DNA of 64,000 bases from an uncultured Vicinamibacteraceae bacterium (GTDB lineage: Bacteria; Acidobacteriota; Vicinamibacteria; Vicinamibacterales; UBA8438), in the NCBI GenBank assembly GCA_964646815.1, contig CAZYFH010000011.1:3428-67427 (forward strand), written 5' to 3'. The translations under genes were made by a program, and so were the position numbers. Shown here piece after piece: positions 1,774 to 60,419 of the stretch. Each line of letters opens with the position of its first letter. Position 1 is the stretch's first letter. Under the pieces are notes generated by a model. It made no database searches. It was given only the letters and a program-made list of their open reading frames with translations, and had not been told where the DNA came from.

Positions 1774-3129
1774 TCAGGGGTCGTTTCGGTACACGCGTCC
1801 GCCCTTCATCACGAAGTGCACCGCCTTGAGTGCGTCGATGTTCTCCAGGGGGTTCTCTGGAGTCGCGATGATATCGGCGGCGAGGCTGGGTGCGATGCGT
1901 CCACGCTCTGCATCGATCTTCATGAGCCGGGCCGCGTTCGTCGTCATCGCCTGTAGGATCGCGGGTGGCGGGACACCCGCCTCGACCCATACGTCCAGGT
2001 AGTCCAACATCATCTCGGCGCGCGTCCGACCGGGCGGACTGATGATCACATCGGTGCCAAACACCAGCGTGACCCCGACGTCGTACGCGCGTCGCAACCG
2101 GTCGTGGATGCCCGCCGCCGCCGCCGCCATCCCGTCGGCGGCCTCCGCTGGTCCGAGCATCTGGAAGTGCTCGGTGGGAAAGTCGGTTCCCACGAGCACC
2201 GTGCCGCGCGCTTTCATCAGGCGCAGCACGTCATCGCTCAATTGGAAGCCGTGTTCGATCGAATCCGCACCGCCGAGGACGACGTTCCGTGCCGCATCGT
2301 CGCTCGTGACGTGGACCGCAACCGTGACGCCGGCGCGATGGGCCTCGTCGACCGCCGCCCGGATATCGTCCTCCGAGTAGTAGTAGCGCTGGTCATCGGA
2401 CACGAGCTTGATCGCGTTGGCGCCGTAGTAGAGATTTCGGCGGATCGCCTTACGGATCTCGTCCGGCGTGTCGGCGTCGATGTATTCGAGTTGCCAGAAT
2501 GGCCCAATGTCCGGTGGCATTCCCACGCTCTGGCCGCCAAACGGCGCAATGATCTTGCCCGCGGTCAGCAGCGTCGGCCCGTCGATGAAGCCGCGGTCGA
2601 TCGCCGTCATGAGCGCGGTCCCGGCATAGTCGGCGTCGTTCCCGACGTTCTTGACGGTCGTGAACCCCGCGTCCAGGATCACCCGCGCATTCCGGGCGCC
2701 TCGCAACGCCCGAAGTGCGGTGCTCTCTCGAAGCCACTGCGTATCCGGTCCATCCGCGCTGGGCCGCACTGCGGTCGTCAGATGGACATGCGCGTCCATG
2801 AGACCGGGGAGGACCCACGATTCGGACAAGTCGACGACGTCGGCGCCGACGGGCACTTCTACAGTGTCACCGACCGCGGTGATCCGTCCCGCCTCGACGA
2901 GGATGAGCTGGTTCGCGGTGCTGGTGCCTGCGTCTGGGTCGATTAGGTGACCAACGCGGAGGGCCACGGTCTGGGCGTGGAGCGAACTGGCCTCGAGGAG
3001 CACCAGCATAGCTGCCAGCCCGGCGGCACGTACCGCGGCAACCCCGCTTGGATGAACCGGCAGCAGGTCGCTCACCATGTATTTAAAAAGGCCTTCCAGC
3101 CTCGCGCCGCAGACCTTGAGCGGTGCCAC
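1774..3129 (-). CDS. amidohydrolase-family metallohydrolase, secreted
   Basis: 451 aa. It has an N-terminal signal-like segment, LPGLMDAHVHL metal-binding His motif, later HV..D and HG motifs. The start may be the internal Met at 3078. Confidence 0.8.
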   Translation of the reverse strand: MAPLKVCGARLEGLFKYMVSDLLPVHPSGVAAVRAAGLAAMLVLLEASSLHAQTVALRVGHLIDPDAGTSTANQLILVEAGRITAVGDTVEVPVGADVVDLSESWVLPGLMDAHVHLTTAVRPSADGPDTQWLRESTALRALRGARNARVILDAGFTTVKNVGNDADYAGTALMTAIDRGFIDGPTLLTAGKIIAPFGGQSVGMPPDIGPFWQLEYIDADTPDEIRKAIRRNLYYGANAIKLVSDDQRYYYSEDDIRAAVDEAHRAGVTVAVHVTSDDAARNVVLGGADSIEHGFQLSDDVLRLMKARGTVLVGTDFPTEHFQMLGPAEAADGMAAAAAGIHDRLRRAYDVGVTLVFGTDVIISPPGRTRAEMMLDYLDVWVEAGVPPPAILQAMTTNAARLMKIDAERGRIAPSLAADIIATPENPLENIDALKAVHFVMKGGRVYRNDP

Positions 3130-3155
3130 GGCCGTCCGTCGTCGGCGCCCTCGCC

Positions 3156-4472
3156 TTAGTCCGCTCCGATGCTTGGCACGACGCCAGGCACCGCGTTACC
3201 GGCGATCCACACCGATTCGATCGATCGGCTGTTGCTGATGTCGGCGGCTGGATTCGCGCCGTAGACGACGAAGTCCGCCTGCTTTCCGGCAGCCAGCGTC
3301 CCGACATCGTCGAGATCCAGACAGGCGGCCGCGTCACCGGTCGCCGCGACGATGGCCTGCATCGGTGTGAGGCCGGCGTCCACCATCAGGTCGAGCTCGC
3401 CGTGCTCGAAGTAGCCCTGGAACCGCGCGGCGGGGCCGGTGTCGGTGCCCATCGCGATCCGCACACCCGCGTCGGCAAGCATCTTGAGGTTCTTCTTCGC
3501 TGTGTCGAGCTGGACCTTGTAAGTCTGCGCGCTCGAGCTGTTTCGGTAGCCTTCCTGCCGTTCCGGGTCTTCGAGCGCCGCGAGCACTGCAGGGTCCGCA
3601 TCTTTCAAGAAGAACGGATCGTCGAACCACTCGGGACGCTCTTCGTACACGTAGGTAGAGACCTCGCGCATTAGCGTCGGACAGACGCAGACGTTGCGGT
3701 CAGTGAGGAGGCCAATCAGTTCGTCGTCTACATCGAGATCGCGCACGCTGTGCGCAACGAAATCAGCGCCAGCCTCGAGGAGCCCCTTGGCGTCCTCGAG
3801 ATAGTAGAGATGGGCAGTCAGCTTCAGATCGCGGGCGTGCGCCGTCTCGATCACCGCTTGGTAGATTTCACGCGGCATTTTGTTGGTGACGCCGAGGTTG
3901 TCGTCGACCCGGATCTTGATGAAGTCGACGTTCATGTCGGCCGCGGCGTTCACCCGCTCGGCGGCCTGCTCCGGCGAGTCGGCCGTGATGACCGGTCCGG
4001 CGACCCGCAGCCGCGCATGCGACAGGTCGGGCCCTTCGCGGTCACGGACGGCAATCCCCTCGGGGCCGTCGCCGCCGAGGCTGACGACGGTCGTCACCCC
4101 GTACCGCGCGTAGAGACCGAGCTGATATGCGACGTGGTCCTCGGTGTAGTAGGCCGGGTCGGCTTCGAGGCCGCGGACGTTGTTGACGTGCCCATGTGCG
4201 TTGATCAGGCCGGGTGTGATGGTCTTGCCGGTCAGGTCGATGCTCGTGGCATCTGGCGGCACGTCGATGGCGTCGCCCGGTCCCATCGCTTCGATGCGGC
4301 CGTCACGGATGACCATCGTCCCGCCTTCGATCGTGTCACCGTCACCGACGATCAGACGCGCCCCGGTGAACGCCATCAGTCCTGGCGTTGGCTCGACCGG
4401 TTCCGGTTCCGGCGCGGCGCAGGCCGCCATCATCACCGTGACCAGCCCAAGAACGAACAGTTGCTTCTTCAT
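3156..4472 (-). CDS. amidohydrolase-family metallohydrolase, lipoprotein
   Basis: I place the start at MKKQLFVLGLVTVMMAAC (lipobox-like LVTVMMAAC) rather than the track start at 4640. It carries TPGLINAHGHV metal motif and is a paralog of the neighbouring gene. Confidence 0.8.
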   Translation of the reverse strand: MKKQLFVLGLVTVMMAACAAPEPEPVEPTPGLMAFTGARLIVGDGDTIEGGTMVIRDGRIEAMGPGDAIDVPPDATSIDLTGKTITPGLINAHGHVNNVRGLEADPAYYTEDHVAYQLGLYARYGVTTVVSLGGDGPEGIAVRDREGPDLSHARLRVAGPVITADSPEQAAERVNAAADMNVDFIKIRVDDNLGVTNKMPREIYQAVIETAHARDLKLTAHLYYLEDAKGLLEAGADFVAHSVRDLDVDDELIGLLTDRNVCVCPTLMREVSTYVYEERPEWFDDPFFLKDADPAVLAALEDPERQEGYRNSSSAQTYKVQLDTAKKNLKMLADAGVRIAMGTDTGPAARFQGYFEHGELDLMVDAGLTPMQAIVAATGDAAACLDLDDVGTLAAGKQADFVVYGANPAADISNSRSIESVWIAGNAVPGVVPSIGAD

Positions 4473-7481: not shown

Positions 7482-7617
7482 AGGGGGCTGATAGACTCTC
7501 CCGGTCTTGCCGTCGCCGTCCGCGCGCGCTGACTGACGAGCGTCGGGCGGTCCCCGAGCCGTGACGGTGACAACCGAAGGTCCTCGAAACCCTCGAACCT
7601 CGCAACTGGAGATCCCC

Positions 7618-8079
7618 ATGCCGCTCACTGTCGGCGACACCGCCCCCGATTTCGAACTGAACAGCCACCTCGGCGGCACGGTCACGCTTTCGATCTTTCG
7701 GGGCAACACGAACGTAGTCGTCGCGTTCCATCCGCTGGCGTGGACGCCGGTCTGCGCCAATCAGATGAAGGCGTACGAGACGGAACGGGACTGGTTCGCC
7801 GAGCACGACACCCGCGTCCTCGGCGTCAGTGTTGACGCCGTGCCGTCCAAGATCGAGTGGGCAAAGAGCCTCGGCGGGATCTCGTACGACTTGCTGAGCG
7901 ATTTCCACCCACACGGCGCCGTGGCCGAGGCGTTCGGAGTGGCGCGTGAGGGTGGAATCTCGGAGCGGGCGATCTTCGTTGTCGACAAAGCCGGGACCAT
8001 CGCGTTCGCGAAGGTCTACGACCTCCCGACGTTGCCGGACAACGCGGAAGTCCGCCAGGCGATCGAGCGGCTAGGTTAG
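7618..8079 (+). CDS. peroxiredoxin (AhpC/TSA family, 1-Cys or AhpE/Bcp-like)
   Basis: MPLTVGDTAPDFEL...VVVAFHPLAWTPVCANQ carries the peroxidatic Cys motif. GGAG lies 8 nt upstream of the ATG at 7618. The track start at 7561 is a GTG extension. Confidence 0.85.
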   Translation: MPLTVGDTAPDFELNSHLGGTVTLSIFRGNTNVVVAFHPLAWTPVCANQMKAYETERDWFAEHDTRVLGVSVDAVPSKIEWAKSLGGISYDLLSDFHPHGAVAEAFGVAREGGISERAIFVVDKAGTIAFAKVYDLPTLPDNAEVRQAIERLG

Positions 8080-8407: not shown

Positions 8408-8863
8408 ATGTCGAAGAAATATCGGCAGCGCGGCTATCAAGACGACGACCGCGACCGTCCATCCGTTGCCGCGCCGCGAGAGCCGAAGGGCGACGGCCGG
8501 CCGCGACGCGGCTATGGGCCGCGTGAGCCGCGCAAGGTCAACATGCCGGGCTTCCACGACGTCCTGAAGTGCGCACGGTGTGGTGCGTCGCTGACCGGGG
8601 CGATCCGCTTCGATTCGCAGTGCTCACAGTGCTCCGCCGACCTCCACAGTTGCGCGCAATGCACCTGGTTCGACACGAGCAGTCAGTTCGAATGTGGGCG
8701 ACCGATCCCGAAGCGAGTGTCCCCGAAGGACGAACGGAACGACTGCACCTACTTCGAAGCGCGCATCACCGTGGAGCGCGAAACGCGCTCAGCGCCGCCG
8801 ACCGCGGAAACACGGCCGGCGTCTGGTAACGCGCGACAAGCGTTCGACGACCTGTTCAAGTAG
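8408..8863 (+). CDS. hypothetical Cys-rich (zinc-ribbon-like) protein with basic disordered N-terminus
   Basis: 151 aa with CARCG..x..CSQCS..x..CAQC..x..ECG cysteine pairs and a coding-like GC3. I do not recognise a family. Confidence 0.55.
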   Translation: MSKKYRQRGYQDDDRDRPSVAAPREPKGDGRPRRGYGPREPRKVNMPGFHDVLKCARCGASLTGAIRFDSQCSQCSADLHSCAQCTWFDTSSQFECGRPIPKRVSPKDERNDCTYFEARITVERETRSAPPTAETRPASGNARQAFDDLFK

Positions 8864-8953: not shown

Positions 8954-9589
8954 ATGTCCGAGCCCAGCACTCAGCACGACATTGCCGCTCGGCTCTCGGC
9001 GCTTGCGTCGCCCGTGCGACTCGTGTTCTTCACGCAGACGTTCGGCTGCGAGACTTGCTTCGCGGCCCGCCGCGTCATCGATCAGCTGGCCAGTCTGTCC
9101 GAGCACCTCACGGTCGAGGAGCACAACCTAGTGCTCGACAAGGATCGGGTGACTGAGTTCGGCGTCGACCGAGCCCCCGCGATCGCGATCGCGGGGGCTC
9201 AGGATCTGGGGCTACGGTATTACGGCGTGCCGTCGGGCCATGAGATCGAATCGTTGGTCGAGGCGATCGAGCTCGCGGCACACGGGGCGACCGGATTGAG
9301 CGATGAAAGTCTCGCTGCGCTGGCGGCGCTCGACCGCGCCGTCCACCTTCAGGTGTTCGTCACCCCGACGTGACGGTTTTGTCCCCAGGCGGTTAGCCTG
9401 GCCTACCGGTTGGCCGCAGCGAGCGCGCGTGTCACGGCGTCGGTGATCGAAGCGACCGAGTTCCCCGATCTCGCTACCCGCTATAGGGTGACCGGCGTGC
9501 CGAAAACGATCGTCGATGACCGAATCGAGATCATGGGTGCGCAGCCGGAGGCGGAGTTCGTCCAGCACGCGCTGCAGGCGACCGGATGA
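8954..9589 (+). CDS. two-domain glutaredoxin-like protein disulfide oxidoreductase (PDO-like) with in-frame TGA (candidate Sec) at 9371-9373
   Basis: The N-terminal unit has the CETC motif. After VFVTPT the frame hits TGA and continues RFCPQAVSLAYRLA...RYRVTGVPKTIV...HALQATG to TGA at 9587-9589, a complete second Trx unit with a cis-Pro GVPK. GC3 stays near 80% after the TGA. The final stop overlaps the next gene's ATG (ATGA). Confidence 0.6.
9374..9408 (+). promoter_or_regulatory. SECIS-like stem-loop immediately 3' of the in-frame TGA
   Basis: The upper stem is CCAGGC (9385-9390) paired with GCCTGG (9396-9401), with loop GGTTA. The lower stem is CGGT (9374-9377) paired with ACCG (9405-9408). 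The apical loop starts 18 nt after the TGA. Confidence 0.4.
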
Positions 9590-11475
9590 TCGCGCGGCGG
9601 AGCACGGCCAGTGGGCTCGTCGCGGGCCTCGGTGCCGGCTGGTGGCTGGTCACGCTCGTCGCACAAGTCCCGCCACCTATCGACTATCACCTGTCGTTCC
9701 CGGAGCCGGAGCATCGGTGGCTTGCGGTGGACGTACTCTTTCCCGAGATTGGTGATGCGCCACTCGACATCCGGATGAGCAGCGCCTCGCCGGGTCGTTA
9801 CGCGCGCCACGAGTTCGCGAAGAACGTCATCGAGGTGCGGTTCACCGATGGCGCCGGGGGCGACGTGGCGGTGACCCGGCGCGGGCCGGCACAATGGGCG
9901 GTCGCTCGACACGACGGCGCGGTCCGCGCCCGCTATCGCTTGTTTGGCGATCGCGTCGACGGCACGTATCTGGCGGTCGATGCCACGCATGCGCACCTGA
10001 ACATGCCCGCGACGTTGATGTGGGCCGCCGGGTTCGAGGATCGCGCCGCGACGGTCACGTTCGAGATGCCCCCTGCCCGAGGCTGGCAGGTCGCGACGCA
10101 GCTCTTTCCTACGGCGGAGCCGCTCGTCTTCACTGCCCCCAACCTGCAGTACCTCCTGGATAGCCCGACGGAGTTCAGCGATTTCGATCTGCGAACCTTC
10201 ACCGTGCCCGACCCGGCCGACAACGCCTTCGTACCGACGTTCCGGCTCGCCGTCCACCACGACGGCGAGGCGTCCGCCCTGGCGCCCTTTGCGCGGGCGG
10301 TCGAGCACATCGTGCGCGAGACGGTGTCAGTGTTCGGGGAGTTTCCCCGCTTCGAGACCGGCGCCTACACGTTCATTGCTGACTATCTGCCCTATGCCAG
10401 CAGCGACGCGATGGAGCATCGCAACAGCACGGTGCTGACGTCCGCGGGTCGGCTCGACGGGGCGGATGACCGCGCGCGCCTGCTCGGCGCGGTCGCGCAC
10501 GAGTTCTTTCACGTCTGGAACGTCGAGCGGATTCGCCCGGAATCGCTCGAGCCGTTTAATTTCACGCGTGCCAACGTCTCCGGCGAACTCTGGCTGGCGG
10601 AGGGCGTCACGAACTATTACGGCGGGCTGATCATGCACCGTGCAGGCCTCGCCACGCTGCCGGCGACGTTGAGCCGGTTCGCCAATGTCATCAACACGGT
10701 CACGCTCGGCCCTGGTCGTCGGTTCCGCTCGGTGGTCGACATGAGTCGAATGGCGCCATTTACCGATGCGGCCACCGCAATCGACCGCACCAATCTGGAG
10801 AACACGTTCATCTCGTATTACATCTGGGGGGAGGCCCTGGGGTTGGGGCTCGACCTCGCGCTGCGGACGCGAACCGAGGGCGGCGTGACGCTCGACGACT
10901 ATATGCGCGCGCTGTGGGAGCGCTTCGGCCGTCCCGGTGGTTCGGTGGCCGGAGCGGTCGACCGGCCGTACACTCCCAATGACGCGGAACGATTGCTTGG
11001 GGTCGTCGCAGGCGACCCTGCATTCGCGCGGGACTTCTTTGCTCGCTACATCAACGGCCGCGAGGTGGTCGGGTACGCAGAGCTACTGGCGCACGCGGGC
11101 TTCGTCGTGCGGCCGGCCGCACCAGGGCGGGCGACACTCGGCGACCTGCCCCTCGGGGCTGGCATGCGGGTGATTGGCCCGACGGCGTACGAATCCCCGC
11201 TACACGAGGCCGGGATCGAGCGTGACGACGTGCTGGCGACGCTCGACGGCCAGCGCCTGACGTCGGGCGCGCAGATCCAGCGACTCGTACGCGCCAAGAG
11301 CCCGGGCGACGTCGTGACCATCGGGTACGTTCGCCGCGGCCAGCGGAGGGTGTCCACCGCGACGCTCGTCGCCGACGGCCGCATCGAGATCGTGCCGGTC
11401 GAATCGATCGGCACGACGCTCACCGAGCCACAGCGCGCGCTCCGCGACGCCTGGCTCGGCAGCCGGCAAGACTGA
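9586..11475 (+). CDS. M61-family metallopeptidase (glycyl aminopeptidase-like) with C-terminal PDZ domain
   Basis: 629 aa with a HEFFHVWNVERIRP zinc motif and a C-terminal PDZ-like segment (GIERDDVLATLDGQRL...GDVVTIGYVRRG). Confidence 0.85.
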   Translation: MIARRSTASGLVAGLGAGWWLVTLVAQVPPPIDYHLSFPEPEHRWLAVDVLFPEIGDAPLDIRMSSASPGRYARHEFAKNVIEVRFTDGAGGDVAVTRRGPAQWAVARHDGAVRARYRLFGDRVDGTYLAVDATHAHLNMPATLMWAAGFEDRAATVTFEMPPARGWQVATQLFPTAEPLVFTAPNLQYLLDSPTEFSDFDLRTFTVPDPADNAFVPTFRLAVHHDGEASALAPFARAVEHIVRETVSVFGEFPRFETGAYTFIADYLPYASSDAMEHRNSTVLTSAGRLDGADDRARLLGAVAHEFFHVWNVERIRPESLEPFNFTRANVSGELWLAEGVTNYYGGLIMHRAGLATLPATLSRFANVINTVTLGPGRRFRSVVDMSRMAPFTDAATAIDRTNLENTFISYYIWGEALGLGLDLALRTRTEGGVTLDDYMRALWERFGRPGGSVAGAVDRPYTPNDAERLLGVVAGDPAFARDFFARYINGREVVGYAELLAHAGFVVRPAAPGRATLGDLPLGAGMRVIGPTAYESPLHEAGIERDDVLATLDGQRLTSGAQIQRLVRAKSPGDVVTIGYVRRGQRRVSTATLVADGRIEIVPVESIGTTLTEPQRALRDAWLGSRQD

Positions 11476-11739: not shown

Positions 11740-14244
11740 GTGGCCATGGCTGTCGTCACACGCGACCCCGTCTGCGGCATGGAGGTGAATCCGGACAAAG
11801 CCCGGTATAGCCATGAACACGAGGGGTCGACATACCTCTTCTGCTGCTCGGGTTGCCAGGCCGCGTTCACCGACGACCCCACCGCGTTCCTCCAGGCCGC
11901 CGCCCCCCCCGCGTCGCTCGATCACTCGGACGCCGCCGTCCCGCGCCCCGCGTCTGGACCGTCGAAGAAGGTGGAGCCTCCAGCCTCGACAGCCTATGTC
12001 TGCCCGATGTGTCCGGACGTCCGTGAAGACGAGCTGGTCCCATGCCCCTCGTGTGGGATGGCGCTCGAACCGGAAGCCGTCGCGCTGCCGGAGCAGCGGG
12101 TCGAGTACACCTGCCCGATGCATCCCGCGGTCGTTCGCGCTGAGCCCGGTGCGTGTCCCACATGCGGCATGGGGCTCGAGCCGCGAACCGTCACGGCCGA
12201 CGAGCCGCCGAACGCCGAGCTGATCGGCATGACGCGCCGGTTCCAGGTCGGCGCGGCAATCGGTCTTCCGGTGTTCGCGCTCGCCATGGGCGAGATGCTG
12301 TTCGGAACTGAGGTGCTGGGTCTCCCGCGATGGGCGTCGAACTGGATCCAGCTCGCCTGCGCGACGCCGGTCGTCGTCTGGTCGGGGCGTCCGTTCTTCG
12401 AGCGGGGGTGGACGTCGATCGTCAACCGGAGCCCCAATATGTTCACGCTAATCGCGCTGGGCGTCGGCGCGGCGTATCTCTACAGCGTAGCTGCCACGGT
12501 GATGCCTGCCGCGTTTCCGTCCGGGTTCCGCATGGACGGGGGCGTCGAGCCGTACTTCGACACCGCGGTCGTCATCATCGTGCTCGTGCTGCTGGGCCAA
12601 GTGCTCGAGCTACGGGCGCGGCAGCGCACCGGCGCTGCACTGCGCGCGCTCCTCGGCTTCGCTCCCGCAGTGGCCCACCGGCTGGAGCCAGGTTCCGATG
12701 ACGCGCTCCGGGAGACCGACGTTCCGCTAGCCGACGTGCGGGTCGGCGACCTGCTGCGCGTGCGCCCGGGCGATCGCATCCCGGTCGACGGGACCGTCAC
12801 GGATGGTCGCAGCACGGTCGACGAGTCGATGGTGAGCGGCGAGCCGATGCCGGTGCTGAAGACGCCTGGCGTTGACGTGATTGGCGCAACGATCAACGGC
12901 ACCGGTAGTCTGACAATGCGGGCCGATCGGGTCGGCCGGGACACCCTGCTCGCGCAGATCGTCGGCATGGTCAGCGACGCGCAACGAAGCCGCGCCCCGA
13001 TCCAGCGGGTCGCCGACCGGCTGGCCGCCTTCTTTGTCCCGGCCGTCGTGACCGTGGCGGCGGCGTCATTCGTCGGTTGGGCGATCTGGGGACCCGAACC
13101 CCGGCTCGCCCTCGCGGTGGTCAGCGCTGTCGCGGTGCTCATCATTGCCTGCCCGTGCGCTCTGGGGCTCGCCACGCCGATGGCCATCATGGTGGGGTCG
13201 GGTCGCGGCGCGACGGCCGGGGTGCTCATCCGCAACGCGGAGGCGCTCGAGACGCTCGAGAAGGTCGATACGCTGATCGTCGACAAGACCGGCACGTTAA
13301 CCCTGGGCAAACCACAAGTGCAGTCCGTCGTGCTCGCGACCGAAGGCGACGCGCCCCCCCGCTGGGAGGAAAATGCGCTGCTCGGGATCGTCGCCGGGCT
13401 CGAGCAAGCGAGCGAGCACCCGCTGGCGTCCGCGGTCGTGGCTGAGGCGACGCGTCGCGGCTTGACGCGGGCGTCGGCGAGCGACTTCGAGTCTGAGACG
13501 GGCCGCGGGGTGATTGGCAACGTCGGCGGCCGGCGCGTGGCCGTCGGCACCGCGGCGTGGTTGCTTCACCAGGGATGCGAGGTCGGATCGCTCGACGCCA
13601 CCGCGGAGGCTGCCCGTCTGCGTGGCGAGACGGTCGTCTACATCGCAGTCGACGGCGTCTTGGCTGGCCTCCTCGGCATCGCGGATCCGGTCAAGGGCTC
13701 GACACCCGAGGCCATCTGGCTCCTCCGTTCTGACAACCTCCGCGTCATGATGGTCACCGGGGACAGTCGCGCGACAGCCGAAACGGTGGCCGCGCAGGTC
13801 GGCATCGACCCGACCGATATCGTTGCCGAAGCGCTGCCCGCCGACAAGCGCCGTGTCGTGGCAGAGCAGCAGGCCGGCGGACACTTGGTCGCCATGGCGG
13901 GCGACGGCATCAACGACGCACCGGCGCTCGCCGAGGCCGCGGTCGGCATCGCTATGGGCACCGGGACCGACGTTGCGATGGAGAGCGCCGGAGTGACACT
14001 CGTTAAGGGGGATCTCCGGGCCATCGTGCGGGCGCGGCGGCTCAGCCGCGCCACGATGCGCAACATCCGGCAGAACCTGTTCCTCGCGTTCGTCTACAAC
14101 GCCGTCGGCATTCCGGTGGCGGCTGGCGTGCTGTACCCGGTGATTGGACTGCTCGTGAGTCCCATCTTGGCAAGCGCTGCGATGATGATGAGCTCGCTGT
14201 CGGTGATCGGCAACGCGCTCCGGCTCCGCCGCCTCAAGCTGTAG
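11740..14244 (+). CDS. heavy-metal translocating P1B-type ATPase (Cu/Ag-type) with TRASH/YHS and duplicated Cys-rich metal-binding modules
   Basis: 834 aa. It has N-terminal DPVCGMEV...FCCSGC, then two repeats [17 protein letters not shown] and [17 protein letters not shown], a CPC motif in TM6 ([12 protein letters not shown]), the phosphorylation site DKTGTLT and GDGINDAP. Confidence 0.9.
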
Positions 14245-18187: not shown

Positions 18188-19219
18188 ATGGCATCGTGTC
18201 CGGCACGACTGGTTTTGGCGGCGCTCGCGTTGTTGCTTGCGCCGGTGCCGCTCCTCGCGCAGGACAGCGGCGGCGTGGTCGCGCGCGTCGGCGGTGAGTC
18301 GATCACGGCGACCGAGCTCGAAGATGCCTGGCATCGCAGTGACGCCGCGTCCCGTATCCGGATGCTCCAGCAGCTCTACGACACACGACGGCGCGCGCTG
18401 GACATCGTCATCGGCGAGCGACTCATCGAGCGGGAAACCGTGGCGCGCGCCATGACGCGCGAGGCGTTGCTGGCGGCCGAGTTGCCGAGTCGAACCTTAC
18501 CGGTGAGCGACGAGGAGATCGACCTCATCTACGAGCGCAACAAGGATCGGTTCGGCGGGCGGACCGCCGAAGAGATGCGGCCCGAAATCCGCGTCATGAT
18601 GGAAGAGCAGCGGCCGTTGCAGGCGTTGCACGCGTACATGAACGAGCTCCGGCTGGCGGCCGGCGATGTCGTCGTGCTCCTCGACCCGCCGCGGCAGGAC
18701 GTCGAGACGAGCGCGGACGACGCGGTGCGCGGTCCCGCCGACGCCCCGATCCAGCTCGTCGAATTTTCGGATTTCGATTGTCCGTATTGCCAGCGGGCCA
18801 CCGGCACGATTGCTCGGCTGCTCGAGCGGTATGGTGACCAGATCCGTGTCGTCTACAAGGACTACCCGCTCCCCAATCATCCGAACGCGTTCAAGGCCGC
18901 CGAGGCGGGGAAGTGCGCCAACGCCCAAGGCAAGTTCTGGGAGCTGCACGACAAGATGTTCGCGAGTCAGGGCTCGCTCGACGTCGCGTCGTTGAAGACA
19001 TACGCGTCGGAGCTCGGACTCGACGCACCCGAATTCGCCTCCTGCCTGGATGAGGGACGCTACACTCGGCGTGTGCAGCAGGATCTCGTTGCCGGCTCAC
19101 GCTATGGTGTCTCGTCGACTCCAACGGTGTTCATCAACGGCCGCCTCGTGACCGGCGCCGTGCCCTACGATGTGTTCGACGGGATCATCCGCGAGGAGTT
19201 GGTTGCAGCCGGGCAGTAG
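18188..19219 (+). CDS. secreted DsbA-family thiol:disulfide oxidoreductase with N-terminal SurA-like helical extension
   Basis: It has a signal peptide, the active site FSDFDCPYCQ, and the DsbA helical insert FWELHDKMF. Confidence 0.85.
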   Translation: MASCPARLVLAALALLLAPVPLLAQDSGGVVARVGGESITATELEDAWHRSDAASRIRMLQQLYDTRRRALDIVIGERLIERETVARAMTREALLAAELPSRTLPVSDEEIDLIYERNKDRFGGRTAEEMRPEIRVMMEEQRPLQALHAYMNELRLAAGDVVVLLDPPRQDVETSADDAVRGPADAPIQLVEFSDFDCPYCQRATGTIARLLERYGDQIRVVYKDYPLPNHPNAFKAAEAGKCANAQGKFWELHDKMFASQGSLDVASLKTYASELGLDAPEFASCLDEGRYTRRVQQDLVAGSRYGVSSTPTVFINGRLVTGAVPYDVFDGIIREELVAAGQ

Positions 19220-27910: not shown

Positions 27911-27935
27911 ATATCCGACTGATTTGGTCGGTTAT
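27911..27935. promoter_or_regulatory. IscR/Rrf2-type palindromic operator upstream of sufB
   Basis: ATATCCGACTGATTTGGTCGGTTAT closely fits the recalled E. coli IscR type-1 consensus ATASYYGACTRwwwYAGTCRRSTAT. It sits in a low-GC gap 33 nt upstream of the sufB ATG. Confidence 0.5.
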
Positions 27936-27967
27936 TGAATAAGGGGCAACTGAAGCGCAGCCCAGAT

Positions 27968-29410
<1,443 letters not shown>

Positions 29411-29567
29411 GGCTTGGGAATTTGAGGCTTGGGACCAGGCCACGCCTACACCGCGCGCAACGCAGATTGGTCACACGCGGTTCCGTTGCCTCCCAGACGC
29501 ATCGACACCAGCGACGAGAACGCTCGGACACTCTGCAACCCCTAAGCCTGGACTCGTGAACCAACCC

Positions 29568-30332
29568 ATGCTCGAAGTCACGAACCTACACGCCAAAATC
29601 GGCGATCGCGACATCCTCAAGGGCATCGACCTGTCGGTGCAGGCCGGCGAAGTGCACGCCATCATGGGCCCGAACGGCTCGGGCAAGAGCACATTGGCTG
29701 CCGTCCTCGCCGGTCGCGAGGAGTACGAGGTCACCGCGGGGACCGTGACCTACCGCGGTTGGGACCTCCTCGATATGGCCCCGGAAGCGCGCGCGCGCGA
29801 GGGGGTCTTTCTTGCTTTTCAATACCCGGTCGAGATTCCTGGCGTCAACAACGCCTATCTCCTTAAGGCGGCGCTCAACGAGGTCCGCAAACATCGCGGT
29901 GAACCAGAGCTCGACGCCATGGACTTCATGACGTTTGTCAAGGAGCGGATGCGAACGCTCGAGTTCGACCAGAGCCTGATGAACCGGCCGGTCAACGAGG
30001 GTTTCTCCGGTGGGGAGAAGAAACGAAACGAGATCTTCCAGATGGCGGTGCTCGAGCCGAAGCTGGCCATCATGGACGAAACGGACTCCGGCCTGGACAT
30101 CGACGCGCTCAAGATCGTCGCACATGGGGTCAACGTGATGCGCACCCCCGAGCGCGCGGTCGTGATTGTCACGCACTACCAAAGGCTGCTCAACTACATC
30201 GTGCCCGACTTCGTGCACGTTCTCGCTGGCGGCCACATCGTCAAATCCGGCGGCAAGGAGCTGGCGCTTGAGCTTGAGGAGCGTGGCTACGGCTGGATCG
30301 AGGGCGATGCGGTGAGTGCCTCGGTGTCATGA
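29568..30332 (+). CDS. sufC: Fe-S cluster assembly ATPase SufC
   Basis: MLEVTNLHAKIGDRDILKGIDL...GPNGSGKST Walker A, FSGGEKKRNEI signature and LAIMDETDSGLD Walker B. Confidence 0.95.
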   Translation: MLEVTNLHAKIGDRDILKGIDLSVQAGEVHAIMGPNGSGKSTLAAVLAGREEYEVTAGTVTYRGWDLLDMAPEARAREGVFLAFQYPVEIPGVNNAYLLKAALNEVRKHRGEPELDAMDFMTFVKERMRTLEFDQSLMNRPVNEGFSGGEKKRNEIFQMAVLEPKLAIMDETDSGLDIDALKIVAHGVNVMRTPERAVVIVTHYQRLLNYIVPDFVHVLAGGHIVKSGGKELALELEERGYGWIEGDAVSASVS

Positions 30333-30345
30333 CAGCCTGGACCCA

Positions 30346-31707
30346 ATGCCAGTGACGGAGACGCGAGCGGCGACGCTCGATGCGTATGGCGCCGCGTTTG
30401 AACGCGTCCAGCGTGACGCCGGGGGGGCGACGCGGCTCACCGACCTGCGTCGCGCCGCATTTGACCGCTTTACGCAACTGGGTCTTCCGACCACGCGGCT
30501 CGAGCGGTGGCGCTTCACCAACGTTGCGCCGATCGCCGCCACGGCGTTCGGCCCGGCGGATCCGACCCCGGTTCCCCCCTCGGCGGTTTCCCCGTACCTC
30601 ACGAACGTCGACGGCGCCGCGCCAACCGTTGTATTCGTCAACGGCCGCTACGTCCCCGCGCTGTCCACAGCGGCCGACGGGTCGTCGGATGTTCGGGTCG
30701 AGAGCCTCGCGGACGCGCTCATGTCCGACGCGGCGGACGACACGGAGCGCCATCTCGCGTCCGTTGCAGGCTTCGACACCGAAGCATTCACCGCGCTCAA
30801 CACCGCCCTGCTACACGACGGGGCGGTGGTGCGCGTTCCTAACAACGTCGTCGTGGAATCGCCAATCCAGCTCCTGTTCCTGACCGCGCCCACGGCCGAC
30901 CGCACCCCGATCATGACGCACCCGCGCGTGCTGATCGTCGCTGGTGAAAACGCCCAGGCCAGGCTCGTCGAGAGCTACGCCGGAGTCGACGACGGCCCGT
31001 ATTTTACCAACGCGGTGACCGAGGTGATCGCCGGTGCACACGCCATCATCGATCACTACAAGCTGGTTCGCGAGCGTCTCGACGCCTTTCACATCGCTAG
31101 CATGCATCTTCGGCTCCACCGGGCCGCGAGTTTCTCGTCGCATGCGATCACACTCGGGGGCGGCCTGGTACGCAATGACGTCGAGGCCCATCTCGATGGA
31201 GAAGGCGTCGACTGCACGTTGAACGGGTTGTATCTCGCGAACGGCCGACGGCTGGTGGACAACCACACGACGATTCGTCACGCCAAGCCACACTGCTCCA
31301 GCCACGAGCTCTACAAGGGTATCGTCGACGATCAGGCGCGTGCTATTTTCAACGGCAAGATCATCGTCGAGATCGACGCGCAGAAAACCGACGCCAAGCA
31401 GACCAACAAGGCGCTGCTGCTGTCCGAAGATGCCCAGATCAACACCAAGCCGGAGCTGGAAATCTTCGCCGACGACGTCAAGTGCACCCACGGCGCGACT
31501 GTGGGCCAGCTCGATGCCGACGCGCTCTTCTACCTTCGCGCTCGGGGCCTGGGTCTCGTGCAGGCGCGCAATGTCCTGATCCACGCGTTTGCCAGCGACC
31601 TGCTGAGTCATGTCGGCGTCGCGCCGCTCCGCACGATGCTCGACGGCCTGCTCCTCGACCAGCTGCCGGGGTCGGGCGGAGGCACGTTCTATGAGCAGTC
31701 CGACTGA
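30346..31707 (+). CDS. sufD: Fe-S cluster assembly protein SufD
   Basis: The C-terminal beta-helix pattern (HSSHELYKGIVDDQARAIFNGKI...TKPELEIFADDVKCTHGATVG) is typical of SufD. A GTG at 30316 is an alternative start. Confidence 0.9.
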   Translation: MPVTETRAATLDAYGAAFERVQRDAGGATRLTDLRRAAFDRFTQLGLPTTRLERWRFTNVAPIAATAFGPADPTPVPPSAVSPYLTNVDGAAPTVVFVNGRYVPALSTAADGSSDVRVESLADALMSDAADDTERHLASVAGFDTEAFTALNTALLHDGAVVRVPNNVVVESPIQLLFLTAPTADRTPIMTHPRVLIVAGENAQARLVESYAGVDDGPYFTNAVTEVIAGAHAIIDHYKLVRERLDAFHIASMHLRLHRAASFSSHAITLGGGLVRNDVEAHLDGEGVDCTLNGLYLANGRRLVDNHTTIRHAKPHCSSHELYKGIVDDQARAIFNGKIIVEIDAQKTDAKQTNKALLLSEDAQINTKPELEIFADDVKCTHGATVGQLDADALFYLRARGLGLVQARNVLIHAFASDLLSHVGVAPLRTMLDGLLLDQLPGSGGGTFYEQSD

Positions 31708-32956
31708 CGCACCCGCGCCGCCCGCGGTGCCGGCCCCGCTCGACGTCGAGAGGATCAGGCGGGACTTCCCGATTCTTCGCCGGCTCGTCCGCGGGCATCC
31801 CCTCGTCTACCTCGATAGCGCCGCGACGACGCAGAAGCCACAAGCGGTACTCGACGTCATCGCGCAGTACTACGCCGACAGCAACGCGAACATCCACCGC
31901 GGCGTCCACGTGCTGAGCGAGGAAGCGACGCGCGCATACGATGCGGCGCGTGGAAAAGTGCAACGTTTCCTCAACGCCGCGGCCAGTCGGGAGATCATCT
32001 TCACGCGCAATTCCACCGAGAGCATCAATCTGGTGGCACAGAGCTTCGGGCGGCAGAACGTCGGGCGCGGCGACGAGATCGTCATCACGCACATGGAGCA
32101 CCACTCGAACATCGTGCCGTGGCAGCTGCTGTGCGAGCAGGTGGGCGCCCGGCTACGCGTCGCGCCGATCGACGATCGCGGCGAGTTGAGGCTCGACGAG
32201 CTCGAGCAGCTCATCGGCCCGCGCACGCGCTTCGTGTCGGTGGTCCATCTGTCCAACTCGCTCGGGACCATCAATCCCGTGCGCGACATTGTGCAGATGG
32301 CGCATCAGCGGAACGTGCCGGTCCTGATCGATGGTTCGCAGGCCGTCTACCACATGCCGGTGGACGTCCAGGCGATCGACTGCGACTTTTACGTCTGCAC
32401 CGGGCACAAGCTGTACGGCCCAACTGGGATCGGCGTGCTATATGGCCGTGAAGCGTGGCTCGAGCGGATGCCGCCCTATCAGGGGGGCGGCGACATGATT
32501 CGGTCGGTTACCTTCGACAAGACCACCTACGCCGACCTTCCGAACAAGTTCGAGGCCGGGACACCGCATATCGCCGGCGCGGTCGGTCTCGGCGCCGCCG
32601 TCGACTATGTGCAAGCGGTCGGGTTCGACCGTCTTGCCGCCCACGAAGCGGACCTGCTCGCCTACGGCACGGCGGCGCTCTCCGAAGTCAAAGGTCTGCG
32701 CCTGATCGGCACCGCGTCCCGGAAGGCGAGCATCCTGGCGTTCGTCATGACGGGCGCGCACCCGCACGACGTTGGCACCATCGTCGACACAGAAGGCGTG
32801 GCGATCCGCACGGGGCACCATTGCACGCAGCCGCTGATGGAGCGGTTCGGGGTGCCGGCGACCGCGCGCGCGTCAGTCGCCATGTACAACACACGCGCGG
32901 AGATCGACGCGCTGGTGCGCGCGCTGCAACGCGTGCGCGAGGTCTTCCCTGCATGA
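31691..32956 (+). CDS. sufS: cysteine desulfurase SufS (group II)
   Basis: DFPIL...YLDSAATTQKP, the PLP-binding region GHKLYGPTGIG and the active site RTGHHCTQP. The start overlaps the sufD stop. Confidence 0.9.
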   Translation: MSSPTDAPAPPAVPAPLDVERIRRDFPILRRLVRGHPLVYLDSAATTQKPQAVLDVIAQYYADSNANIHRGVHVLSEEATRAYDAARGKVQRFLNAAASREIIFTRNSTESINLVAQSFGRQNVGRGDEIVITHMEHHSNIVPWQLLCEQVGARLRVAPIDDRGELRLDELEQLIGPRTRFVSVVHLSNSLGTINPVRDIVQMAHQRNVPVLIDGSQAVYHMPVDVQAIDCDFYVCTGHKLYGPTGIGVLYGREAWLERMPPYQGGGDMIRSVTFDKTTYADLPNKFEAGTPHIAGAVGLGAAVDYVQAVGFDRLAAHEADLLAYGTAALSEVKGLRLIGTASRKASILAFVMTGAHPHDVGTIVDTEGVAIRTGHHCTQPLMERFGVPATARASVAMYNTRAEIDALVRALQRVREVFPA

Positions 32957-51001: not shown

Positions 51002-51934
51002 ATGCGGCCGTTACGCGTTGGAGTGATTGCCTTCGTCGTGCTGGCGCTCTCGGGCGTCGCGCTGGCTATTCGGGCCGACGGTTCACTTGCGGATGGCTGG
51101 CAGGCGATCAGCGCGCGGCTGTTGGGTTCCCCGGAACTGGCGCCGTCACCAGCGACCGGCGCCCTCCACCCCGCCGCGGGTGGCCCTGGTGGCGTACCCG
51201 GCCCAGGGCAACGGGTGCAGCGCGGCTTCGACCCACGTCAATTGCTCGACCGGCGTCGCGGGACACTGCAGAGCCCGGCCGGCCCCCACGAGTTTTATTT
51301 TACCCGCGCCATCTATCGCAGCGGCGGCTGGCGGGGAAATCCATGGGCCACTGACTTTCCGAAGTCCGACCGGCAGTTCATGACGATCGTCAATCGTCTG
51401 ATCGAGATCGATGCCTCCGAGCGGGAGAATGCCATCCGGCTCGACGACCCCGACGTGCGGAAGTACCCGTTTCTCTACGCGCTCGAAGTGGGCGATATCG
51501 CGCTCAGCCCCGCCGAAGTCGAGGGACTCCGCAACTATCTGTTGGCGGGCGGCTTCTTAGTCGTCGATGACTTCTGGGGTTCGTGGCAATGGTCGAACTT
51601 CGAGCGGCAAATCCGGCTCGTCTTTCCCGAGCACCAGATCATCGAGATCCCCCTTGACCATCCTATTTTCAACACTGTCTATAAAATTGATGAGATTCTT
51701 CAGGTCCCGGCGATCAACAACCACTGGCGCGGCCGGACGTGGGAGTATGACGGGTACACGGCACACACCCGCGGCATCTTCGACGAAAAGGGCCGTTTGA
51801 TGGTCATGATCAACTGGAACACCGACCTCGGCGATGCGTGGGAGTGGGCCGAGCGCCCCGAGTACCCGCTCAAGTACTCGACGTTCGCCGTGGAGATGGG
51901 TGTCAACTTCATCGTGTACGCGATGAGCCATTAG
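51002..51934 (+). CDS. DUF4159-domain protein (paralog 2)
   Basis: 310 aa with an N-terminal TM/signal segment, WATDFPKSDRQF, GGFLVVDDFWG and terminal VYAMSH. Confidence 0.8.
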   Translation: MRPLRVGVIAFVVLALSGVALAIRADGSLADGWQAISARLLGSPELAPSPATGALHPAAGGPGGVPGPGQRVQRGFDPRQLLDRRRGTLQSPAGPHEFYFTRAIYRSGGWRGNPWATDFPKSDRQFMTIVNRLIEIDASERENAIRLDDPDVRKYPFLYALEVGDIALSPAEVEGLRNYLLAGGFLVVDDFWGSWQWSNFERQIRLVFPEHQIIEIPLDHPIFNTVYKIDEILQVPAINNHWRGRTWEYDGYTAHTRGIFDEKGRLMVMINWNTDLGDAWEWAERPEYPLKYSTFAVEMGVNFIVYAMSH

Positions 51935-51962
51935 GCAAAGGTGGGCGACTAGGGGCTCGGAA

Positions 51963-51986
51963 ACCCGTAACCCGTAACCCGTAACC
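51963..51986. repeat. tandem heptamer (ACCCGTA)x3 plus ACC
   Basis: Read directly in the 129-nt gap after the stop of DUF4159 paralog 2. Confidence 0.85.
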
Positions 51987-52063
51987 TGGATCCGGGACGC
52001 CGGAGATCTCCCGATGGACCCCGGGTACCGGCACGCTGAAACCCGACCAGATTTTCGAGGCCC

Positions 52064-54343
52064 ATGTTCGACGCGCTCTTCGAGTTTCTCTTCAAGTATC
52101 GCCCTCTGGTCTACGAGCAGGGGGACCTCGCGTTTCGTGCGTCGTGGGCAGGTGCCCTCGCGGTGGCCGCCGCGGTGGTGGCCGGTGCTCTGACGTTGCG
52201 AACATACGCGCAAGTCCGGGGGAACAGCCAACCGCACGATCGCACCGTGCTTACCGTTGTCAGGCTGGCCGCGCTCGCGGTGCTCGCCCTCTGCCTGATG
52301 CAGCCGGTGCTCGTCCTCTCCTCGGTCGTGCCACAGCAGAATTTCCTCGGCGTGCTGCTCGACGACTCGCGCAGCATGCAGATCGCGGACCGCGACGAGA
52401 CAGCGCGGCGGCAATTCGTCGAGGACCATTTCGCGGCAGAGACCGGCGATCTTCGGGCCGCCCTGTCCGATCGCTTTGCCTTGCGGTTCTTCGGTTTCTC
52501 GACGGAAACGGATCGGCTCGACGACATCAGCGAGTTGTCGTACGCCGGCACACGCACGCACCTCGGGCAGGCACTCGAGCGCGCACACGACGAGCTCTCC
52601 GGCGTGCCGCTGTCGGGCCTAGTCGTCGTGACCGACGGCGCCGACAATGCCGACGCCGGCCTTGCCGAGTCGTTGCTCCCGATCCAGGCCGCTGGTATCC
52701 CTGTGTTCACGGTTGGCCTCGGCCGGGAGGAATTCGACCGCGACATCCAGCTCAGCCGTATCGAAACGCCTCGGCGTGTTCTCAAGGGTGCGGCGCTGGT
52801 CATCGACTGCGTCGTCACGCATCGCGGCTACCGAGGTGAGACCGTGACCGTCCAGGTCGAGGACGAGGGCCGCATCGTCGGCACCGAGACTGTCGAGCTT
52901 CCCGGCGACGGCGAGCCCAGGACGGTTCGGATGCGGTTCACCGCTAACGAAGAGGGCCCGCGCTTGTTCAGCTTCCGCGTGTCGCCGCGTCCGGGTGAGA
53001 TGGTCACCCAGAACAACGTGCGGAACGTATTGATCCTCGTTGAAGATCGCAGCGAAAAGATCCTGTACTTCGAGGGCGAGCCGCGGTTCGAGGTGAAGTT
53101 CCTGCGCCGCGCGGTGGCCGACGACGAGAATCTGCACGTCTCGATTCTGCAACGCACGGCGGAGAACAAGTTCATGCGCCTCGACGTCGAGGGCGCAGAT
53201 GATCTCGTCGGCGGCTTTCCGACGACTCGAGCCGAGCTCTTCAGGTACAGCGGACTCGTGCTCGGCAGCATCGAAGCCAGCCACTTCACTCCCGACCAGC
53301 TGCGCATGATTGCCGACTTCGTCAACCACCGTGGCGGCGGGCTGCTCATGCTCGGTAGCCAGCGGTCGTTCGCCGAAGGCGGATACGCGGGAACGCCCGT
53401 CGCCGACGTCCTGCCGGTCGTGCTCGACGGCGACCGTGCCGACGGTGAGGAGGACTTCTTCGTCGAAGTGGCCGTCGAAACGACACGCGCCGGGGCGACC
53501 CATGCCGCCACACAGATCGCGGATACGGAGGAGCTGTCAGTCAATCGCTGGCGCGAGCTGCCGCCGATCACGGTGGTCAACCCGATCACCGACGTCAAGC
53601 CGGGTGCAACGACCCTGTTGACCAGCCCGGATGAAGAGCTGGTGATCCTTGCGTTCCAGCGCTACGGGGCGGGCAAGTCGCTCGCGTTCCCGGTGCAGGA
53701 CTCGTGGATGTGGCAGATGCACGCCGACATCGCCGTCGACGACATGACGCACGAGACGTTCTGGCGACGGCTCCTGCGGTGGCTCGTCGATGGGGTGCCC
53801 GACCAGGTTACGACGGATCTGCCCCAGGACCGCGTCGAGACAGACGAGCCGGTTACCGTGCTGGCGGCGGTCGGCGACGCGAATTTCGAGGAGCTCAACA
53901 ACAGCGCCGTGACAGCCGTGGTGACGCACCCGAACGGCGACTTCACCGATCTCTCGATGGAGTGGACGGCGGAACGGGACGGCGAGTATCGTGCCAGTTT
54001 CACGCCGAGCGAAGAGGGGTTCTACGAGATCCACGTCGAGGCGATGGCCGGTGACGAGGTGATCGGCGAGGATGCGACGTTCGTGCAGGTGGCTCCGAGC
54101 GACGCGGAATTTTACGACTCGACGATGCGAGCGCCGCTCCTGGAGCGGATCGCCGACGATACCGGGGGCCGCTTCTATACGCCCGAGACCGTATCGTCGC
54201 TCCCGGAAGACGTTCAGCATGTCGGGCGCGGTGTGACCGTGGTCGAGGAGCGCGACCTCTGGGACATGCCGGCGCTGATGTTGTTGCTCGCCACGCTCGT
54301 CCTGGGCGAGTGGGGGTACCGGCGTTTCCGAGGGCTCGCATGA
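52064..54343 (+). CDS. membrane-anchored VWA-domain protein with GATase1-like (DUF1355-type) domain
   Basis: 759 aa with N-terminal TM helices, MIDAS-like LLDDSRSMQ, a later ILYFEGEPRFEVKFLRRAV segment, and a C-terminal TM MPALMLLLATLVLGEWGY. Confidence 0.75.
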   Translation: MFDALFEFLFKYRPLVYEQGDLAFRASWAGALAVAAAVVAGALTLRTYAQVRGNSQPHDRTVLTVVRLAALAVLALCLMQPVLVLSSVVPQQNFLGVLLDDSRSMQIADRDETARRQFVEDHFAAETGDLRAALSDRFALRFFGFSTETDRLDDISELSYAGTRTHLGQALERAHDELSGVPLSGLVVVTDGADNADAGLAESLLPIQAAGIPVFTVGLGREEFDRDIQLSRIETPRRVLKGAALVIDCVVTHRGYRGETVTVQVEDEGRIVGTETVELPGDGEPRTVRMRFTANEEGPRLFSFRVSPRPGEMVTQNNVRNVLILVEDRSEKILYFEGEPRFEVKFLRRAVADDENLHVSILQRTAENKFMRLDVEGADDLVGGFPTTRAELFRYSGLVLGSIEASHFTPDQLRMIADFVNHRGGGLLMLGSQRSFAEGGYAGTPVADVLPVVLDGDRADGEEDFFVEVAVETTRAGATHAATQIADTEELSVNRWRELPPITVVNPITDVKPGATTLLTSPDEELVILAFQRYGAGKSLAFPVQDSWMWQMHADIAVDDMTHETFWRRLLRWLVDGVPDQVTTDLPQDRVETDEPVTVLAAVGDANFEELNNSAVTAVVTHPNGDFTDLSMEWTAERDGEYRASFTPSEEGFYEIHVEAMAGDEVIGEDATFVQVAPSDAEFYDSTMRAPLLERIADDTGGRFYTPETVSSLPEDVQHVGRGVTVVEERDLWDMPALMLLLATLVLGEWGYRRFRGLA

Positions 54344-55365: not shown

Positions 55366-55368
55366 CCC

Positions 55369-56157: not shown

Positions 56158-56167
56158 CCCCATTCGT

Positions 56168-56237
56168 GGGGTTCATGGTTCAAGGTTCCCGGTTCGGATC
56201 GGTTCGCCCTTCCTCAGGACCTGGAACCCTGAACCCC
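56168..56237. repeat. 18-bp imperfect inverted repeat built from GGTTC/GAACC units
   Basis: GGGGTTCATGGTTCAAGG (56168-56185) pairs with CCTGGAACCCTGAACCCC (56220-56237) at 16 of 18 positions, with a 34-nt loop containing GGTTCCCGGTTCG. Confidence 0.7.
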
Positions 56238-56256
56238 GAACATAGGGAGCTTTCCT

Positions 56257-60307: not shown

Positions 60308-60419
60308 GGGTGAGGTCGCCTGAGCGCTCCACGACCAGGATCCAGGGTCTCCGGCGTCGAGGTTAGACCATCGCGTCGGGCGTGTAAGATGAGGTTCGCG
60401 AAATGATGAGGCTGAGCTG

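Follow-up and report, generated by a model that had tools for sequence, protein, structure and literature searches.

How should a TGA codon be read when it interrupts an otherwise intact redox gene? The question is raised by a 64,000-nucleotide stretch of DNA from an uncultured Vicinamibacteraceae bacterium (contig CAZYFH010000011.1, positions 3,428 to 67,427 of the forward strand; hereafter the window), in which gene calls split the gene for a protein disulfide oxidoreductase (PDO) into a 139-amino-acid piece and a second piece of roughly 52-59 amino acids. The frame at 8954-9589 on the forward strand holds a single internal TGA, at 9371-9373, ahead of its terminal TGA at 9587-9589. Translated from the ATG at 8954, a start that matches the 139-amino-acid gene calls in relatives, it reads MSEPST...LQVFVTPT, then the TGA, then RFCPQAVSLAYRL...RYRVTGVPKTIVDD...QATG, with TGVPKT in the downstream part. 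From comparison with related sequences we consider it very probable that the UGA at 9371-9373 is decoded as selenocysteine (Sec). On this reading 8954-9589 would be one complete selenoprotein coding sequence of 211 codons plus stop, encoding a double thioredoxin-fold oxidoreductase that resembles PDO and the N-terminal domain of AhpF, with Sec at residue 140, the first position of a C-terminal U-R-F-C redox motif. An earlier reading of this DNA from its letters alone (the sequence-only reading) had described the internal TGA and the frame open to 9589, with correct coordinates, and had proposed Sec in place of the first Cys of the second CxxC motif; this interpretation is supported by a conserved TGA, a constrained downstream frame, a hairpin in fixed register and a match to the family model TIGR02187.2. 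The GC content at third codon positions (GC3), which that reading had put at about 80% past the TGA, stands at 0.82 up to the internal TGA and at 0.80 beyond it.

For the profile scan the TGA was translated as Cys. The 211-residue protein then matched NCBIfam TIGR02187.2 (PDO_seleno_TRX, protein disulfide oxidoreductase) with a score of 237.6 bits (curated cutoff 185; E 8e-71), the match covering profile positions 3-208 of 209. Since the Pfam domain Thioredoxin_3 (E 6e-19; residues 131-207) straddles the TGA, the sequence past it is homologous coding sequence rather than a chance open frame. The best match among solved structures was the Pyrococcus furiosus PDO (1A8L; E 2.4e-35, residues 15-209), with the PDOs of Aquifex, Pyrococcus horikoshii and Aeropyrum next in rank and the AhpF N-terminal domain as a more distant match. 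In the 1A8L alignment FVTPTCPYCPLAV lies on FVTPT[TGA]RFCPQAV, CQYC on CETC (residues 32-35) and AVPK on GVPK, which bears out the motif FVTPTCPYCP that the sequence-only reading had given for the Pyrococcus protein. Because this alignment places CPYC there, the TGA occupies the place of the first, nucleophilic Cys of the second CxxC, and it falls on a column (C140) that is invariant in 24 Cys homologues.

The remaining active-site positions are conserved as well. Cys143, which would be the resolving Cys of U-x-x-C, is a TGT read directly from the sequence at 9380-9382 (+) and occupies an invariant alignment column. The CxxC of the N-terminal unit, C32-E-T-C35 at 9047-9058 (+), has C32 and C35 invariant in 25 homologues and aligns with CQYC of the P. 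furiosus protein. Pro183, at 9500-9502 (+), lies in a G-V-P-K-T loop in which G181, V182, P183, K184 and T185 are all invariant and which aligns with AVPK of 1A8L; it is the conserved thioredoxin-fold proline, which is cis in solved relatives and presumably cis here too. The two-unit architecture (CETC at 32-35, U-RF-C at 140-143 and GVPKT at 181-185) is collinear with 1A8L, 2AYT and 2HLS, and a double thioredoxin fold is predicted from the sequence. The second thioredoxin-fold unit that had been proposed to lie beyond the TGA, with its GVPK, is thus recovered both by the span of Thioredoxin_3 and by the invariant loop.

A single base change makes TGA from TGC or TGT, and Cys forms of the gene are present in sister lineages (L011, L013-L020), so that the locus might be a pseudogene: a Cys codon turned into a nonsense codon, with a downstream frame that has yet to decay. 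The sequence-only reading had named a recent mutation of this kind as its alternative. A protein search, in which full-length Cys homologues were found at 60-71% identity, also returned four clusters of 139-amino-acid proteins at 84-88% identity that end at the identical residue; these clusters hold at least 15 further distinct sequences, some of them on contigs of 1-6.6 Mb. In the DNA of L001, L002-L005, L006 and L007 the TGA is followed by an intact RFCPQAVSLAYRLAAAS... frame whose first codons differ synonymously only, and the TGA is kept in five distinct close lineages. The nearest species representative, the Vicinamibacterales chromosome OZ220728.1 (L008; 72% amino-acid identity), has the TGA form too. 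More broadly, TGA was found in 26-27 species-representative genomes and is conserved between lineages differing at 30-50% of residues.

Nor does the sequence downstream look like that of a decaying gene. Across the 71 codons that follow the TGA, synonymous and non-synonymous codon differences between the window and its relatives stand at 15:5 (L001), 11:4 (L002) and 23:13 (L008), and by this comparison the downstream constraint at least equals that of the upstream part. These 71 codons are under purifying selection, and no further stops or frameshifts were found downstream in the seven closest Sec-type relatives compared. The PDO gene also remains translationally coupled to the gene that follows it: as the sequence-only reading had noted, its stop (TGA, 9587-9589) overlaps the start of an M61 peptidase gene (ATG, 9586-9588) in an ATGA at 9586-9589 (+), which is likewise present in L001 and L002, and the 629-amino-acid open reading frame beyond it carries Peptidase_M61 domains. 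We therefore regard a pseudogene as exceedingly improbable, and a recent nonsense mutation is excluded by the conservation of the TGA together with the synonymous excess.

The window derives from metagenomic short reads (assembly ERZ909419). A recoded gene could in principle be imitated by a sequencing or assembly error at this codon, or by TGA being reassigned throughout the genome. The exact 139-amino-acid upstream product, however, recurs on 6 contigs that stem from several samples and differ in run and assembler, including the 375,943-bp k127_654304 of ERZ909419 (marine metagenome PRJNA352798), and TGA is also present at this position in long-read chromosomes of relatives. As for reassignment, TGA closes 11 of the 28 called genes of the window, the PDO gene included; because it serves there as an ordinary terminator, any recoding would be local. 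We accordingly give next to no weight to either explanation. Taken together, the conservation of the TGA, the downstream constraint and the ordinary TGA stops rule out a nonsense mutation or pseudogene, as well as an assembly error or a reassigned code.

When one genome from each GTDB species was scanned with a profile as guide, 80 loci were obtained. TGA stood cleanly in 26 of them and TGC or TGT in 51, and L050 was also of the Cys form; the column that the sequence-only reading had proposed to inspect for Cys or Sec therefore holds both states. The TGA genomes belong mainly to Vicinamibacterales and other Acidobacteriota, with further cases in Terriglobia, in one metagenome-assembled genome (MAG) each of Gemmatimonadota, Methylomirabilota and Anaerolineales and in a MAG labelled Betaproteobacteria. 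In a gene tree there are at least 4 Sec clades, Cys forms are nested within the large Sec clade, and several Sec/Cys switches are seen. Within a clade of Acidobacteriota centred on Vicinamibacterales, the Sec form predominates. URFC carries the dipeptide R-F of the window's own clade, most other Sec forms having UPHC or UPYC.

The remaining two loci deserve separate mention. In L068 (positions 3001-3611; Vicinamibacterales chromosome OZ252042.1), which reads TPT[TGA]TFCPQG, a 1-nt frameshift lies within the hairpin region described below and the normal C-terminus continues in another frame; this could be either a homopolymer assembly error or incipient decay. It is the sole frameshifted exception among the Sec loci read, which otherwise keep the frame open through the GVPK region. 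In L063, from a Chloroflexota MAG (about 680-1279), a Cys-type homologue reads CPY[TAG], with TAG replacing the second Cys of CxxC, which may be an error, a pseudogene or another recoding.

What would allow a ribosome to pass the UGA? The base after it is C (UGAC) in 29/29 aligned Sec forms, the frameshifted L068 lying outside the alignment. Eleven nucleotides past the TGA begins a minihelix resembling a selenocysteine insertion sequence (SECIS), at 9385-9401 (+), with the 5' arm CCAGGC (9385-9390), the loop GGUUA (9391-9395) and the 3' arm GCCUGG (9396-9401). Numbered from the U of UGA, as are all hairpin positions here, nt 15-20 pair with nt 26-31 around a loop at nt 21-25, and the energy of nt 12-36 is -11.5 kcal/mol. 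The four loop-proximal pairs are intact in 28/29 distinct Sec-type sequences versus 6/48 distinct Cys-type sequences (Fisher P = 4e-14). Over nt 12-36 the mean minimum free energy (MFE) is -10.4 kcal/mol in Sec forms versus -6.4 kcal/mol in Cys forms (Mann-Whitney P = 4e-9), with mean shuffle z-scores of -1.6 versus -0.25. The true register pairs 84% of cells, versus 24-61% for slid registers. All Sec-type loops have a G at their first or second position and a U at nt 23, the commonest loop being GGUCA (18/29). The stem itself varies: in one Vicinamibacteria subgroup it reads GCGGGC/GCCUCGC and its 3' side carries a bulged U, and the Anaerolineales locus L064 has an unrelated stem, GGCAC/GUGCU, in the same place. 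The protein sequence encoded here, P-[QR]-A-V-[SR]-L-A, is nearly fixed in Sec forms.

The hairpin that the sequence-only reading had proposed is present. Its upper portion (CCAGGC/GGTTA/GCCTGG) is the element just described, and the distance of its loop from the UGA had rightly been placed within the bacterial SECIS range: the spacing is 17 nt, inside the 16-37 nt of a published model (PMC13188914). Its lower stem, CGGT at 9374-9377 with ACCG at 9405-9408 (nt 4-7/35-38), can also form in the window; among Sec forms, however, pairing there holds in just 51% of cells, and the stem was rejected as a conserved part of the element. The same bacterial SECIS (bSECIS) model limits the loop to 3-9 nt and the upper stem to 4-16 bp, places a G first or second in the loop and asks for an MFE of at most -7.5 kcal/mol (PMC13188914); the window hairpin lies within all of these limits, with a loop of 5 nt that opens with GG, a stem of 6 bp and -11.5 kcal/mol. 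No Rfam family matched anywhere in the window at gathering thresholds, and a permissive scan of 9340-9460 gave a chance microRNA match only, a result that is uninformative because short bacterial SECIS elements are not captured there.

A different way of passing, or respecting, the UGA has to be weighed against these observations. The codon might be read through independently of Sec by a near-cognate tRNA (for Trp, Cys or Arg), or the gene might be truly bipartite, with the 139-amino-acid N-terminal unit associating with a separate C-terminal fragment. Gene callers do predict a Thioredoxin_3 fragment of 52-59 amino acids that begins at an internal start codon (in the window, TTG 9410; in L001 the fragment is 10478-10636), and no Sec machinery was seen in the covered part of the window's genome, about 84 kb (the window with its 10-kb flanks) out of several megabases. 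Yet the 12 codons that separate the TGA from this start (RFCPQAVSLAYR) specify the same amino acids across the clade while their DNA differs synonymously, and this stretch holds the indispensable resolving Cys and a Pro. The internal TTG is not conserved, being CTC in L008-L010, and a fragment begun there would lack the active site and strand beta1. Moreover, the UGA sits exactly at the column of the catalytic Cys, and the hairpin is a specific feature of UGA forms. Read-through of this kind or a split gene is for these reasons very unlikely, if somewhat less so than a pseudogene or an error.

Several points nevertheless weigh against decoding as Sec. The support for it comes throughout from comparison at the level of sequence. 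A crude scan with the generic bSECIS constraints passes 19/30 Sec sequences and also 18/49 Cys sequences, so that such rules alone prove little in G+C-rich coding DNA. Covariation, which the sequence-only reading had suggested examining, is weak: one pair is changed on both sides, and 27-28 of 500 column shuffles reach the observed score. This formal weakness arises because the helix is mostly conserved in sequence, and the support for the hairpin lies in its conservation and in the Sec-versus-Cys contrast, and not in compensatory change; the telling evidence is the fixed-position contrast of 28/29 against 6/48. When 48-50 nt are folded, the MFE structure of the window and its three closest relatives prefers an alternative helix at nt 19-47, GGCGGUUAGCC / GGUUGGCCGC (window 9389-9417, +), which would bury the loop; it is found in L001, L002 and L006 and is absent from L008 and more distant Sec forms.

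Finally, the genes for Sec insertion were not seen in the DNA covered. SelA, SelB and SelD were absent from the Pfam annotation of the window and its 10-kb flanks, ARAGORN found no tRNA genes, and hence no tRNA-Sec, in the window or in 31 related loci, and tblastn with approximate E. coli SelA, SelB and SelD queries gave no matches in the 676 kb of related loci. Because about 84 kb of the genome is visible, this absence is uninformative and neither supports nor refutes the Sec reading.

If the UGA is decoded as Sec, the steps can be sketched from the anatomy of the locus and the established bacterial Sec pathway, from which the SelB-dependent steps are taken. The gene at 8954-9589 would yield one 211-residue PDO with two thioredoxin folds, carrying CETC in its N-terminal unit and U-R-F-C in its C-terminal unit, and probably cytoplasmic because it has no signal peptide. 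With the ribosome at UGA-C, the 17-nt minihelix at 9385-9401 would be positioned where mRNA enters the ribosome; the GGU(U/C)A loop starts 17 nt past the codon. SelB-GTP-Sec-tRNA(Sec) would bind the apical part of the minihelix, and SelB would deliver Sec in competition with release factor 2. Translation would then run for 71 more codons to the TGA at 9587-9589, coupled through ATGA to the M61 start. In the finished protein Sec140 would be the attacking nucleophile and Cys143 the resolving residue in thiol-disulfide (selenenylsulfide) exchange, with electrons passing to client proteins as in PDOs and the AhpF N-terminal domain, and CETC of the N-terminal unit would form a second redox site as in PDOs. 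Recharging would probably be by a flavoprotein of the thioredoxin-reductase type.

The surroundings of the gene are partly conserved. The order in the window is a peroxiredoxin gene (7561-8079, AhpC-TSA), a gene for a 151-amino-acid Cys-rich protein (8408-8863, +), the PDO gene with its UGA, the M61 peptidase gene (9586-11475, +) and a copper P-type ATPase gene (11740-14244). The peroxiredoxin gene, two genes upstream of the PDO gene, is kept as a neighbour only in the closest relatives. The 151-amino-acid protein has no Pfam or NCBIfam match; it shows the pattern C-x2-C ... C-x2-C ... LHxCxQC..FDT...EC...RNxC, in which the Cys pairs are invariant, and an invariant C-terminal AR.AFDDLFK. Its gene lies near the PDO gene in 31 related loci of Acidobacteriota and Gemmatimonadota, beside Sec and Cys forms alike, upstream on the same strand in all but L026, where it is on the opposite strand, and directly adjacent in nearly all; its link to the PDO is one of genomic context only. 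The M61 peptidase (629 amino acids; Peptidase_M61_N, Peptidase_M61 and PDZ) belongs to the glycyl aminopeptidase family and has an N-terminal hydrophobic segment, and its gene follows the PDO gene in 19/32 Sec loci versus 3/51 Cys loci.

As a tentative idea, which we think rather unlikely, the Sec-type PDO may be the redox component of an undescribed conserved three-gene module, comprising the Cys-rich, zinc-ribbon-like protein, the U-x-x-C PDO and a coupled, exported M61 metallopeptidase, in Vicinamibacteria-type Acidobacteriota and some Gemmatimonadota, often beside a copper P-type ATPase. Such a module might act in selenium-dependent thiol or metal handling, or in protease maturation, in aerobic bacteria, with Sec ancestral and selected in the clade. 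Cytochrome oxidase genes occur in the window and in L001, and those in the window suggest that the host is aerobic.

Elsewhere in the window, other frames with an in-frame TGA and coding-like GC3 on both sides were sought, and only the PDO gene was credible; the other candidates were rejected as antisense shadows of real genes. About 9 kb from the Sec gene, at 18188-19219 (+), lies a gene for a DsbA-like protein with a CPYC site that scores 103 bits, below the cutoff of 190, against NF041057 ('Rcas_1661 family thioredoxin-like (seleno)lipoprotein'); it is related to this second known selenoprotein family and contains Cys. The window also carries a SufB-SufC-SufD-SufS Fe-S assembly cluster at 27935-32956 (+; SUFBD_core twice, ABC_tran, Aminotran_5) and, at 51002-63896 (+), a row of BatA / VWA / DUF58 / MoxR-AAA genes of the Bat-like aerotolerance type, which includes several DUF4159 proteins and a 1158-amino-acid protein that has no Pfam match.

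For annotation, the locus represents an error repeated many times, in which Sec-type PDO genes are cut in two. Every gene call retrieved for Sec-type relatives stops the PDO gene at residue 139; about 20 distinct truncated 139-amino-acid products were found, together with orphan 52-amino-acid 'Thioredoxin_3' fragments. Because gene calls cut the Sec-type PDO at this residue, inventories of selenoproteins and redox genes from Acidobacteriota MAGs are understated. The locus also offers a clean natural case for asking what maintains Sec in the active site of a thiol-disulfide enzyme, and it is suited to studying how a SECIS within a coding region constrains protein sequence (P-[QR]-A-V-[SR]-L-A).

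Compared with known systems, the window protein aligns with the solved PDOs (Pyrococcus furiosus 1A8L, and 2AYT, 2YWM, 1J08 and 2HLS) at both CxxC sites and the VPK loop (1A8L, residues 15-209); all of these have Cys at the position of Sec140, and their motif is CPYC where URFC is found here. The AhpF N-terminal domain (1HYU, 1ZYN; E 1.5e-8) likewise has a double thioredoxin fold with a redox CxxC in its second unit, and the peroxiredoxin gene two genes upstream of the PDO gene is a further point of likeness to AhpF. AhpF itself carries a fused thioredoxin-reductase module that uses flavin adenine dinucleotide (FAD) and NADH, whereas the window protein is without it. The possibility that it is AhpF proper was rejected: there is no FAD/NAD(P)H thioredoxin-reductase-like module, its length is 211 amino acids against about 520, and it scores 61 bits against the TIGR03140 cutoff of 502.9. 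The gene that follows encodes the M61 peptidase and no flavoprotein.

For the hairpin, the SECIS of E. coli fdhF served as a positive control, its sequence being confirmed in 5,420 E. coli genomes. There too the minihelix spans nt 15-31 from the U, and the codon context is UGA-C in both. The apical loop of fdhF carries GGUC at nt 22-25, that of the present element GGU(U/C) at nt 21-24. The window element differs from that of fdhF in its 5-nt loop, its perfect 6-bp G+C-rich stem and the lack of a bulged U on the 5' side; one subgroup of Sec forms has its bulged U on the 3' side, unlike fdhF, and SelB binding to the window element is putative.

The closest likeness is to the PDO_seleno_TRX-type selenoprotein family, which entered the catalogues in 2006, when Carboxydothermus hydrogenoformans and Symbiobacterium thermophilum were its known hosts (PMC1794560), and is listed as a UxxC selenoprotein (PMC13188914; PMC9312934; PMC1794560). 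Acidobacteria were listed among the selenoprotein-containing phyla, with 3 selenoprotein families (PMC1794560), and a literature search on Vicinamibacter and selenocysteine found nothing relevant. Shared with catalogued members are the curated hidden Markov model (HMM), UxxC in the second thioredoxin unit, one Sec per protein and the common occurrence of Cys orthologues; the likeness is drawn through this HMM. Since the window protein clears the cutoff of that HMM and shares the UxxC site, its gene would be a member of this known family and no new kind of system. It differs in its host, an aerobic, high-GC marine bacterium of the Acidobacteriota / Vicinamibacterales type, where that of the catalogued family is an anaerobic thermophile, and, unlike catalogued members, in its URFC motif and its conserved neighbours, the 151-amino-acid Cys-rich protein and the M61 peptidase. 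What appears modestly new is the prevalence of the Sec form in aerobic Vicinamibacterales-type Acidobacteriota, the URFC dipeptide, the several Sec/Cys switches and the systematic truncation of the gene; the known family thereby gains a high-GC, aerobic lineage from marine or soil settings, Vicinamibacterales and its neighbours, in which the Sec form predominates.

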